Part shown: positions 6,671 through 9,503 of the stretch, piece by piece
How positions within the stretch are numbered: the first letter of the stretch is position 1
Layout of the letters: each line of letters begins with the position of its first letter
Sequence record: PQ471516.1
DNA from: Escherichia phage Turkey5
DNA length: 64,000 nucleotides
Reading direction: 5' to 3' (one strand)
Translations under genes and position numbers: made by a program
The notes under the pieces: generated by a model
Told to the model about the DNA's origin: nothing
The model's input: the letters and a program-made list of their open reading frames with translations, nothing else
Databases searched by the model: none

Positions 6671-8002
6671 ATGTCTACTCAAAACGCTGATATCCTGAAC
6701 GTAAAACTGACTCCTAAGAAAGCTAAAGCAGCAATGGCACTGGCTGACATGATTCAAGACAGCCTGATGATTTGGGGTAGCCCTGGTATCGGTAAATCTG
6801 CAATTGCCCGTCAATACGCTGATGAGAACTACCCACTGCGTAAAGACAATCTGGCTAAGATTGAGTTCATGAAGCAGCAAATTGAAGTTGATGTAGAAAA
6901 TGCTGACCAACTACGCCGTGAACTGGCAGCGTTCGAAGCTAAACTGATTGACCAAGACACCAACTTCATCGACTTCCGTTTGTCACAGATTGAACCAAGT
7001 GACCTACGTGGTATCCCAGTACCAGAGAAGATTTTCCTTGATATGGATGGTAAGCAACTGATTGAATCTGAACTGGAAACTGCACAAAACTACATCGCTG
7101 AAACAGCAGTAGTGTGGGCTGCACCAAAAGTGCTGAAACTAAGCCCTGAATGGAAAGGCGTTATCCTGTTCGACGAAATTAACTCTGCAATGCCTATCGT
7201 GCAAGCAGCTTCTTATCAGCTAATCCTCGACCGCTGTGTTGGTGAGATGAAGCTACCTAAGAAAGCTCTGATTCTGGCAGCAGGTAACCGTGAAACTGAT
7301 GGCGGTGTAACCTTCTCTCTAGCTACACCACTGCGTGACCGTATGACTCACATCGAGATGGTTCCTTATCATCAAGATTGGATTAACGACTACGCAATTG
7401 CGAAACGTCTGAACCCAGCAACTGTTGCGTTCATCAACAACACTGGTGCTAAGTACTTCAACACCCTTAGCCCACAAGATCCTTCTCACAGTGGTGGTAC
7501 TTCCCCACGTTCATGGGAAGCAGTAGCACGCTACGAAGACCTGAAGAAAGGTGGTCAGAGTATCGATAAAGAAGTGTTTCGTGCTCTAGTTGCAGGTCGT
7601 GTTGGTGAAGGTGTTGCTACCGAGTACATCGAATATGTAGAAAACGTATCTAAACTACCAGATACCATGTCTATCCTAAACGGTGAGATTAAAGAGATTG
7701 ACGCTTCGCTAGATATTTCTGCGAACTACTTCATCTCTCTGAACCTGGTCTATAAAATTATCGACCTGTACAATGAGAAGCAAGAACAACGTCTGGATGT
7801 GGCTGAATGGGGTAAACTGTGCAACAACTTCATCATCTTCCTAGACCATAACTTCTCTGCAACTCAAGCAGAACTGGCAGTACTAGCGATTCGTACCATC
7901 ACTCAGGCACGTGTAGCGATTTCGACTAAAGATGTACCAGCGTTCACTGACTTCATCAAGAAGTACACTGACCTAGTACGTAAAGCACGCTCCCTAAGCT
8001 AA
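6671..8002 (+). CDS. MoxR/CbbQ-like AAA+ ATPase
   Basis: Walker A GSPGIGKS and Walker B ILFDEIN; single AAA core with C-terminal extension; AAAGGA RBS. Confidence 0.7.
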   Translation: MSTQNADILNVKLTPKKAKAAMALADMIQDSLMIWGSPGIGKSAIARQYADENYPLRKDNLAKIEFMKQQIEVDVENADQLRRELAAFEAKLIDQDTNFIDFRLSQIEPSDLRGIPVPEKIFLDMDGKQLIESELETAQNYIAETAVVWAAPKVLKLSPEWKGVILFDEINSAMPIVQAASYQLILDRCVGEMKLPKKALILAAGNRETDGGVTFSLATPLRDRMTHIEMVPYHQDWINDYAIAKRLNPATVAFINNTGAKYFNTLSPQDPSHSGGTSPRSWEAVARYEDLKKGGQSIDKEVFRALVAGRVGEGVATEYIEYVENVSKLPDTMSILNGEIKEIDASLDISANYFISLNLVYKIIDLYNEKQEQRLDVAEWGKLCNNFIIFLDHNFSATQAELAVLAIRTITQARVAISTKDVPAFTDFIKKYTDLVRKARSLS

Positions 8003-8027
8003 TAATTCGAAATAGTGGTTGACAAGG

Positions 8028-8056
8028 AGGATACCAAATGGTATCCTTCTTTTATC
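8028..8056 (+). terminator. rho-independent terminator between the MoxR-like and VWA genes
   Basis: Hairpin AGGATACC-aaat-GGTATCCT followed by TCTTTTATCTT. Confidence 0.6.
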
Positions 8057-8078
8057 TTAACTAAACGAGGAATTTAAA

Positions 8079-9503
8079 ATGTCTCAAGAACAAAAATTCA
8101 AATTCGAAGAAGTTTCAGCTTCAGTACAGAAAGAGTGCCAAGACCGTCTTATTCTCGCACGTACATCTTTGATGCTTACTAAACCATTCTTTGGTGTACT
8201 GGCATCCCGTCTTCGTCCAGTACCTAACAACACATGGTGTCGTACTCTGGCAGTAGATGGTAAGCACCTTTTTTATAACGTAGAATTCGTAATGGGTATT
8301 CAAGACCCACTCAAGAAAGACGCATATGAAGCAGCAATGCGTGAAGCTCATCCAGAAATTACTGACGAGCAGTTGAAAGAAATGACCGAAGGCTTGACTG
8401 ACGAAAACCTGATTGCAGTTATTTGTCATGAAATTCTTCACTGTGCATACGACCACTTCTTGCGTCGTGGTATGCGTGACCCACAACGTTACAACCGTGC
8501 TGCTGACTACGCGATTAACCAGATTTTGGTTCGTGAAAAGATTGGTAAAATCCAGAATGGTTGGTTGTATGATCCAAAATATGACGGTATGACCGCAGAA
8601 GAGATCTACAACATTCTTCTAGAAGAAGATGAAAAACAAGAACAACAAGAAGGTGAAGGCGAAGGCCAACCACAACAAGGTGGTAGTGGTCAGGGTGAAG
8701 GGCGTTCACGTGGTACATTTGGTGACCTTGCTGATGGCAAAGGTAAAGGTACTCCAAAAGGTACTACCATTGACCAACATGACGTTCCACAAGATGGTGA
8801 TGGCGGTCAGTCTGATGAGAAGAAACGTGAATATATGGACGATTTCAAAACCGCAATGATGAACGCGGCTCGTGCAGGTGGCACACCAGCAGAAATCGAA
8901 CGTATGATCAATAACTTCAAAGCACCAAAAATTGACTGGCGTGCAAAACTACAACGTACTTTGCGTAGCTGGTTAAAATCTGATGCTACTTATCAGAATC
9001 CAAACCGTCGTTCATGGGGTGCAGGTTTTGGTTCTAACGGTTCATTCTACGGGAACCCAATTTTCCCAGGTATGAAACCAGATGATGATATTGATATCGC
9101 AATTGCACTAGATGCATCCGGTTCTATCTCTGAAGATATGCTCCGTGACTTCATCAGTGAAGTACTGGGTATCACTAAGCAATTCAAACAGTTTAAGATT
9201 CGTATCATGACATTTGATACTCAAGTTTATACTGTAATGGATTATAAAACTGGTGAAGAACGTAAGATTCTTGAATATCCAGTTAAAGGCGGTGGCGGTA
9301 CTGACTTTGAAGCAGTGTGGGTTCACATGAAACACGACAACTACAAGCCTAAACAACTTGTAATGTTTACAGATGGTGAGCCGTGGCAGTCATGGGGTGA
9401 TCCTAACTACTGTAAGACACTGTTCGTTATTCACAGTAATCCAGAGAAAGTCGCACCATTCGGTGAAACCGTACACTACGAGTACGAAAATAAGAAAAAA
9501 TAA
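8079..9503 (+). CDS. VWA-domain protein with N-terminal HExxH metallopeptidase-like domain (DUF2201-type partner of MoxR ATPases)
   Basis: HEILH zinc-binding motif near residue 117; Gly/Gln/Glu-rich linker; MIDAS-like DASGS in the C-terminal half; GAGGA RBS. Confidence 0.65.
   Translation: MSQEQKFKFEEVSASVQKECQDRLILARTSLMLTKPFFGVLASRLRPVPNNTWCRTLAVDGKHLFYNVEFVMGIQDPLKKDAYEAAMREAHPEITDEQLKEMTEGLTDENLIAVICHEILHCAYDHFLRRGMRDPQRYNRAADYAINQILVREKIGKIQNGWLYDPKYDGMTAEEIYNILLEEDEKQEQQEGEGEGQPQQGGSGQGEGRSRGTFGDLADGKGKGTPKGTTIDQHDVPQDGDGGQSDEKKREYMDDFKTAMMNAARAGGTPAEIERMINNFKAPKIDWRAKLQRTLRSWLKSDATYQNPNRRSWGAGFGSNGSFYGNPIFPGMKPDDDIDIAIALDASGSISEDMLRDFISEVLGITKQFKQFKIRIMTFDTQVYTVMDYKTGEERKILEYPVKGGGGTDFEAVWVHMKHDNYKPKQLVMFTDGEPWQSWGDPNYCKTLFVIHSNPEKVAPFGETVHYEYENKKK

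Follow-up and report, generated by a model that had tools for sequence, protein, structure and literature searches.

Two adjacent genes of Escherichia phage Turkey5 encode a divergent MoxR-type AAA+ ATPase and a zincin-like VWA protein homologous to N4 gp24 and gp25

We analysed a 64,000-nt stretch of the Escherichia phage Turkey5 genome (PQ471516.1; hereafter the window) and identified two consecutive plus-strand genes, at 6671..8002 and 8079..9503, that encode a divergent MoxR-type AAA+ ATPase (443 aa, PHROG 1297) and a partner protein (474 aa) with a DUF2201_N zincin-like domain followed by a DUF2201 von Willebrand factor A (VWA) domain. The two proteins are homologues of gp24 and gp25 of phage N4, respectively, and sequence comparison indicates that together they form one functional module. 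A prediction made earlier from the DNA letters had placed such a pair within 6671-9503, and both open reading frames (ORFs) were recovered at exactly these coordinates; no rival long ORF is present on the opposite strand over either gene. We propose that the ATPase is an early-made AAA+ ring with a sub-stoichiometric partner, in which the metal ion-dependent adhesion site (MIDAS) of the partner captures a host protein, probably a component of bacterial immunity, that the zincin-like domain then cleaves or inactivates. We give this reading about an even chance of being correct.

The pair is an already annotated, widely conserved phage module and not a discovery. The window belongs to an Asteriusvirus, a myovirus of E. 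coli with a jumbo genome. Its region at nt 6400-9700 has 99.4% identity to vB_EcoM_JNE01 and 84-86% identity to phages of the 121Q, PBECO4 and phAPEC6 type, and the window shows no new biology beyond these sister genomes. In phAPEC6 the genes are annotated as 'MoxR ATPase' and 'N4 gp25-like protein', and the record of Klebsiella phage Muenster lists 'ATPase', 'terminator' and 'putative metallopeptidase' with explicit notes on N4 homology.

A gene pair shared by three groups of large lytic phages

Profile comparison by hhalign matched N4 gp24 to the ATPase family and N4 gp25 to the partner family, each with 99.9% probability. BLASTP identities to the N4 proteins are 30% (ATPase) and 26% (partner), gene order, strand and adjacency are the same in both phages, and N4 gp25 retains the HExxH motif and the MIDAS. 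The jumbo-phage proteins differ in being ~90 aa longer: compared with N4, the Walker A helix of the ATPase is followed by an inserted helical segment and its helix-2 (H2) hairpin is extended, and the partner has 40 additional residues within the zincin domain and a more extended low-complexity linker. N4 also differs in that the gp24-gp25 interval contains no intergenic terminator and that the pair lies in middle transcripts, which are made by a phage-encoded RNA polymerase according to a literature summary. Both N4 genes belong to the 14 core genes of N4-like phages (Schitoviridae), where they have been listed without assigned function for about two decades.

The two families are coupled across genomes. 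Searches of 50,697 phage records by tblastn found the ATPase in 789 and the partner in 714 records with near-identical host-genus counts; the records derive from Rak2-like jumbo, rV5-like and N4-like phages. Few other genes are common to these three groups, which are unrelated to one another and comprise large lytic phages employed in therapy and biocontrol. A scan of prokaryotic genomes (one genome per species) recovered 62 loci, 51 of which were informative, with a genuine homologue of the partner preceded by no less than ~1.2 kb of sequence. A same-strand gene of the ATPase family was present at 50 of these 51 loci, mostly adjacent to or overlapping the partner gene. Coupling of the ATPase gene to a gene for a VWA protein is hence seen in the window, in N4 and at nearly all informative loci.

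Both families also occur in Vequintavirus phages, as bas54_0063 (MoxR ATPase) and bas54_0055 (putative metallopeptidase) of phage Bas54, the sole members with experimental data. In the related Bas51, bas51_0063 (99% DNA identity to bas54_0063) matched the ATPase profile at 7.7e-72 and bas51_0055 matched the partner profile at 2e-91. The Vequintavirus partner also shares the jumbo-type insert before the HExxH motif. The Bas54 locus tag was confirmed in the record of this phage, which also bears the name MaxBurger.

Domain architecture of the ATPase and its partner

The ATPase is unquestionably an AAA+ protein. It has a Walker A motif (GSPGIGKS, aa 36-43, nt 6776-6799), a Walker B motif (ILFDEI, aa 165-170, nt 7163-7180), a sensor 1 (AAGNRE, aa 203-208, nt 7277-7294) and an arginine finger (PLRDRM, aa 220-225, nt 7328-7345), together with the alpha-beta-alpha core and helical lid of the superfamily. 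These motifs and those of the partner given below are on the plus strand, and their positions were confirmed by translation. Walker A and B, sensor 1 and R224 are invariant in the family alignment. An H2-region motif, DFRLSQIEPSDLRGIPVP, is located at nt 6971-7024 and an SPR motif at nt 7499-7516, and several stretches resemble DxRLxQxxPxDLxG, LDRxxGE...AAGN...LxDR and G-x-SPR, which we take to be MoxR signatures.

Assignment of the ATPase to the MoxR clade is reasonable, though not clear-cut. Both structural hallmarks of the clade are present in its AlphaFold2 model (predicted local distance difference test (pLDDT) score of 85), in which a predicted H2 beta-hairpin (strands 115-124 and 141-150) lies between beta2 and beta3 and a short pre-sensor-1 hairpin (188-196) lies ahead of beta4. 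The protein itself scored below the Pfam gathering cut-offs for AAA_3 (18.9 bits, cut-off 27) and AAA_5 (15.8 bits, cut-off 22), because two clade-specific insertions, at aa ~55-98 (a helical hairpin) and ~120-147 (the longer H2 hairpin), break up its N-terminal half. Among 40 family members, 24 matched AAA_5 (best E-value 4.6e-9), 21 matched AAA_3 (2.6e-7) and 17 matched bpMoxR (4e-6); these matches come from shorter relatives without the inserts (30-35% identity), and the profile searches pointed to no unrelated AAA clade. The solved structures nearest to the model were dynein (12.1), midasin (12.1), NorQ (11.3) and CbbQ (11.1), interleaved with the second nucleotide-binding domain (NBD2) of ClpB (11.6) and with HslU (11.1). 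Sequence searches of the PDB with the single protein and with the profile returned P-loop-level matches only, and hhalign of the profile against single E. coli AAA+ proteins aligned the P-loop only (24-46 columns; probability 85% for RavA and 9-42% for YifB, ClpX, Lon and HslU), which does not discriminate between clades. We therefore call the ATPase a divergent MoxR-type lineage. Of the 'classic MoxR-VWA chaperone-type gene pair' proposed in the original prediction, the MoxR-type hallmarks and the coupling to a VWA partner stand, whereas 'classic' does not fit a divergent protein that misses the Pfam MoxR cut-offs.

In the partner, Pfam identified DUF2201_N ('putative metallopeptidase domain', 1.1e-35, 124.1 bits, cut-off 23.2) and DUF2201 ('VWA-like', 1.3e-20, 74.1 bits, cut-off 26.4) in the N-to-C order of the COG3864-type 'predicted metal-dependent peptidase' architecture, and both profiles were matched by 39 of 39 relatives. 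In the AlphaFold2 model (pLDDT 75), a helical N-terminal domain is followed by an acidic, glycine-rich disordered linker (aa ~195-243, nt ~8655-8807), which leads via a helical segment to a C-terminal domain of alpha/beta type. The N-terminal domain carries HEILHCAYDH (aa 117-126, nt 8427-8456) and AADYAIN (nt 8499-8519), and H117, E118, H121, H126, D143 and N147 are invariant in the 39 relatives, with H126 and D143 as candidate third metal ligands of the zincin-like site. In the C-terminal VWA domain (nt ~9090-9476), the MIDAS begun by DASGS (aa 345-349, nt 9111-9125) is completed by GGGGT (T408, nt 9288-9302) and FTDG (D432, nt 9366-9377), and D345, S347, S349, T408 and D432 are likewise invariant. 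The partner thus has the Rossmann-like fold, the DxSxS motif and the downstream threonine and aspartate of VWA domains. A wider alignment that included N4, a Pseudomonas jumbo phage and cellular homologues still showed the MIDAS, H121, H126 and D143 to be invariant. The HEILH and MIDAS-like DASGS motifs reported earlier are accordingly both present, the latter within a complete MIDAS, and the VWA assignment is upheld by the above-cut-off DUF2201 match and by the invariance of the MIDAS residues in both alignments.

The HExxH domain had only weak matches, to M48, PhageMetallopep and SprT-like profiles and to the minigluzincin MJ1213 (E 0.27), and PDB sequence searches with the partner as single protein and as profile gave marginal matches only, to an integrin I-domain and MJ1213. 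HExxH is intact in the 39 close relatives, N4, phage 30-3 and Bas51. Two cellular homologues (L032:5968-7260 and L044:5941-7149) have HTVMH and NGAMH at this position, the latter also without the first histidine; both retain H121, H126, D143 and the full MIDAS. Our literature search on DUF2201, COG3864 and sll7028/sll7029 returned incidental mentions only, with no biochemistry described. PHROG 1314, RefSeq N4 gp25 and many GenBank records label the partner 'HNH endonuclease'. No HNH family was among the Pfam matches of the partner and its 39 relatives, and this name seems to be an erroneous annotation of a DUF2201_N/VWA protein that has spread between records.

The pair resembles NorQ-NorD, CbbQ-CbbO, RavA-ViaA and CoxD-CoxE in combining a helix-2-insert AAA+ protein with a neighbouring gene for a VWA/MIDAS protein, and NorD is described with the same succession of N-terminal domain, flexible linker and C-terminal VWA domain as in the window partner. 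The cellular pairs differ in that their partners lack an HExxH domain and that they mature specific cellular metalloenzymes; relative to them, the window ATPase misses the AAA_3 and AAA_5 cut-offs and has an additional C-terminal helical region of ~200 aa that is covered by no solved MoxR structure. The MoxR-vWA ternary conflict systems (VMAP, iSTAND, FtsH, beta-propeller; Kaur et al. 2020) likewise deploy a MoxR-vWA couple in biological conflict, sometimes with peptidase effectors, and their bpMoxR profile is the one matched by 17 of the 40 ATPase relatives. These systems act in cellular defence and include a third signature component, whereas the window pair is phage-encoded and binary, has the peptidase-like domain fused to the VWA protein and gave no PADLOC match. 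A reading of the pair as a cellular defence system was rejected, given this absence of a PADLOC match and the location of the genes in a lytic phage. Acidianus two-tailed virus also encodes a MoxR-type ATPase (p618) with a VWA protein. As described, this archaeal virus differs in that its pair serves extracellular tail development and has no zincin domain. We found no open text that ties a MoxR subfamily to a DUF2201_N/VWA-type partner.

Promoters and hairpins of the two-gene unit

Two strong promoter sequences precede the ATPase gene on the plus strand. P1 (6382..6409) and P2 (6474..6501, 92 nt after P1) are both TTGACA-16-TATAAT with 12/12 consensus positions and an extended -10 TG; P1 has an A-rich upstream tract and is conserved in phage G17. 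They lie in copy 1 (6361-6422) and copy 2 (6453-6514) of a 62-nt repeat, a 92-nt tandem duplication, and Klebsiella phage Muenster and Serratia phage BF each have one promoter equivalent to P1/P2. Only four sites in the 64 kb match the stringent pattern TTGACA-N13-15-TGNTATAAT (0 expected), two of which are P1 and P2. A third site, P3 (6605..6632, TTTACT-16-TATAAT, 10/12, TG), is weaker and overlaps the tail of a leader hairpin with its -35 element.

This leader hairpin (6557..6612, plus strand; AAAGGAACUG...CAGUUCCUUU then ACUUUUGCC) is located between P2 and P3 and has a minimum free energy (MFE) of -17.8 kcal/mol (z -4.2). An ARNOLD terminator is annotated at the equivalent site of G17, and in Muenster and Serratia BF a hairpin with another stem sequence occupies this position; no Rfam family was matched in the leader region. 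The hairpin may terminate or attenuate transcription, or stabilise the 5' end of the RNA. RNA polymerase that starts at P1 or P2 would meet this terminator-like element ahead of the ATPase ORF, which could give rise to short leader RNAs of ~100 and ~195 nt. The 'three tandem promoters' of the original prediction are therefore all found, but only two are strong and a terminator-like hairpin separates those two from the gene.

The internal terminator claimed between the two genes is supported. A hairpin with T-tract lies at 8024..8060 on the plus strand, comprising a 12-bp stem and 4-nt loop (8024-8051) followed by TTTTATCTT. The 48-nt stretch 8015-8062 has an MFE of -18.8 kcal/mol including outer flanking pairs (z = -4.1), and none of 200 shuffled sequences was as stable. 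The element has the GC-containing hairpin, the directly following U-tract and the conserved position of intrinsic terminators, the position being shared across three genera: the hairpin is conserved in G17 and annotated as terminator in Muenster, and Serratia BF has a different hairpin with a T-run. Conservation in G17 and Muenster together with replacement by another hairpin in Serratia BF argues for function, and the element is intrinsic-terminator-like and presumably leaky. It overlaps a promoter-like site (8019..8047, plus strand; TTGACA-17-TATCCT, 10/12, extended -10 as TGgTATCCT) that is conserved in G17 and partly in Muenster and might serve the partner gene as a weak promoter of its own. 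The partner start codon follows the hairpin by only 27 nt, so the partner must be expressed either by read-through or from this overlapping site.

A closing hairpin follows the partner stop codon at about 9517..9546 on the plus strand (61-nt fold, MFE -16.7 kcal/mol, z -3.7) and ends the two-gene unit; G17 and Muenster have annotated terminators at the corresponding site. The leader hairpin, the promoter-like site at 8019-8047 and this closing hairpin had been overlooked in the first reading of the sequence. With its strong promoters, leader hairpin, leaky intergenic terminator and closing hairpin, the window is a clean example of this layout and could be used for testing the ATPase-to-partner ratio.

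Candidate functions and genomic neighbourhood

Functional data on the family come from the HIDEN-SEQ preprint (10.1101/2025.11.20.689424), in which bas54_0063 and bas54_0055 of phage Bas54 tolerated transposon insertions on E. coli K-12. Insertions were depleted on the clinical isolate CFE311, with a log2 fold change of -7.23 (q = 0) for the ATPase and -2.20 (q = 0.009) for the metallopeptidase-VWA partner, and a clean deletion of the ATPase gene is reported to make Bas54 sensitive specifically to DS-28, a cloned defence system of two genes (10.1101/2025.11.20.689424). The earlier statement that the function of such a pair in a phage is unknown is hence slightly outdated, as the Vequintavirus homologue emerges from this 2025 preprint as an anti-defence gene, a role absent from the candidates then named (metal insertion, complex remodelling or proteolytic activation). 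Our literature search found nothing on the mechanism of DS-28.

Based on this conditional essentiality and on the NorQD architecture, both taken from the literature, we infer the following mode of action, including ring formation, docking mode, control of stoichiometry, proteolysis and the identity of the target. Host RNA polymerase would transcribe the module early from the consensus sigma-70 promoters, and the leader hairpin and leaky intergenic terminator, possibly helped by the weak embedded promoter, would set the ATPase in excess of the partner. The ATPase would assemble into a MoxR-type AAA+ ring on which the partner docks, like NorD on NorQ, by means of its VWA domain and the flexible acidic linker. 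The MIDAS-bound metal would capture an acidic residue of the target protein, and ATP hydrolysis would pull or twist the assembly, whereby the target is remodelled and then cut by, or handed to, the HExxH domain. The target would most likely be a host protein, most plausibly a component of bacterial immunity, and the module would act as an ATP-driven counter-defence or host-takeover device that is dispensable on permissive laboratory hosts. The docking and pore model that we propose is patterned on NorQD, for which one NorD per NorQ hexamer is described, with the VWA finger in the ring pore and a remodelled linker.

An excess of ATPase would fit this architecture and also fits mass spectrometry of phAPEC6, the ATPase of which is 90% identical to that of the window. 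In purified phAPEC6 virions the ATPase gp265c was detected with six peptides (19% coverage), along with thymidylate synthase, gp262c, gp267c and gp268c, whereas the list of detected proteins does not include the partner gp264c. These proteins belong to the cluster gp259c-gp268c, the equivalent of ~3000-12043 in the window. The detections reflect either contamination by abundant early proteins or packaging of part of the cluster.

Several observations weigh against the counter-defence reading. Its functional data stem from a preprint on a distant homologue, with 26% (ATPase) and 28% (partner) identity to the window proteins and with genes that are not adjacent but 3.6 kb apart on opposite strands; the depletion of the Bas54 partner was far weaker than that of the ATPase, and the window contains no homologue of bas54_0140, the other gene validated as acting against DS-28. 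The core status of the pair in all N4-like phages suggests a role broader than countering one sporadic defence system, and the ATPase in phAPEC6 virion preparations could indicate a structural or packaged role. Peptidase activity is a prediction from the HExxH motif; the catalytic glutamate is lost in two cellular homologues, and two fold searches with the full-length partner model retrieved VWA domains only, leaving the N-terminal domain covered by no solved structure. NCBIfam and PADLOC (E <= 0.1) gave no match for either protein.

We weighed three other explanations. The pair could serve purely as a chaperone for remodelling or metal insertion, comparable to NorQD, CbbQO, CoxDE or the CobST/BchID chelatases. 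In this case the HExxH-H-D site would bind metal without cutting and the pair would mature or reactivate a metalloenzyme, for example in phage nucleotide metabolism. Every characterised MoxR-VWA pair is a maturation or remodelling factor and none is known to be a protease, and the stricter conservation of H121, H126 and D143 compared with E118 hints that the conserved property of the N-terminal domain may be metal binding rather than peptide hydrolysis, although HExxH is intact in all close relatives and in the three more distant phages named above. The pair is also found repeatedly near nucleotide-metabolism genes, but this proximity may merely reflect a shared early/middle gene cluster, and the Vequintavirus neighbours differ (anti-sigma factor, fucosyltransferase, rIIA/B). 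Dispensability of the Bas54 homologues on K-12 and their importance on only one clinical host and defence system would be unexpected for a maturase of a core enzyme, and we consider a chaperone role unlikely. A general host shut-off protease that degrades a housekeeping protein, such as a transcription, nucleoid or proteostasis factor, with the DS-28 phenotype of Bas54 being indirect, would agree with the core status in N4-like phages, the spread over three large lytic phage groups, the early expression from strong promoters and the position of the Vequintavirus partner gene directly downstream of a gene labelled anti-sigma factor. Disruption of either Bas54 gene, however, costs no fitness on K-12, the phenotype described in the preprint is specific to a single cloned defence system, and such a protease is without a known target; it thus appears to us quite improbable.

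A role in virion morphogenesis, or as a packaged protein, is the explanation to which we assign the least credence, and we regard it as very improbable. It draws on the presence of gp265c in phAPEC6 virions alongside the neighbours' products gp262c, gp267c and gp268c, on the label 'virion structural protein' of upstream-gene homologues in Serratia BF and 121Q/G17, and on the cited precedent of Acidianus two-tailed virus. The thymidylate synthase in the same phAPEC6 preparation nevertheless shows that abundant non-structural proteins carry over, and the partner is missing from the proteins listed. The genes moreover lie behind consensus host-type promoters and are middle genes in N4, and both Bas54 homologues are non-essential for plaques on K-12.

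If the anti-defence phenotype of the Vequintavirus ATPase extended to the whole family, the counter-defence reading would make the pair the first known AAA+/VWA/zincin device that disarms bacterial immunity, and its presence would help to predict host range. A bolder version, which we hold to be doubtful, is that N4 gp24/gp25-type pairs constitute a novel class of machines with which phages counter defence: driven by ATP, a MoxR-type hexamer would feed or expose MIDAS-captured host immune proteins to the zincin of a single bound partner, the conserved attenuating hairpins would set a ratio of ~6:1, and the machine would explain part of the broad host range of N4-like, rV5-like and Rak2-like phages.

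Genes for nucleotide metabolism recur next to the pair. A thymidylate synthase gene lies downstream in the window (11114-12043) and is also a neighbour in Muenster and Serratia BF; a dCTP deaminase gene lies beside N4 gp25, ThyX is encoded near the pair on a 161-kb metagenomic phage contig, and dUTPase and thymidylate synthase are neighbours in phage RG-2014. In rV5-like phages (Bas51/Bas54), the ATPase gene is near rIIA/rIIB (three genes downstream) and the partner gene directly follows the 'anti-sigma factor' gene. A search of the window detected no homologue of bas54_0140, of this 'anti-sigma factor' or of the small flanking genes. Neighbours of the cellular homologues vary (ResIII/DEAD helicase, ExoX-like exonuclease, LRV-repeat protein), and the few cellular loci examined had no consistent third component. 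Several bacterial chromosomes have a 450-560-aa gene directly before or overlapping the ATPase gene (L035:3104-4792, L032:3363-4733, L044:3618-4958) with no or a weak LRV-repeat Pfam match, which may be a third component of the cellular versions.

Two genes upstream of the pair, the ORF at 4591-5598 encodes an extremely acidic, Asp/Glu-rich protein of 335 aa that is homologous to phAPEC6 gp267c; its homologues in Serratia BF and 121Q are among those labelled 'virion structural protein'. Downstream, a promoter with an 11/12 match at 9552-9579 (plus strand) serves the next gene, and the ORF at 10521-11117 encodes 198 aa; a gene of similar size at this position in Serratia phage BF is labelled DprA-like, a positional match only. 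The other two sites of the stringent promoter pattern, at 36425-36452 (plus strand) and 50445-50472 (minus strand), presumably mark other strongly expressed early units.

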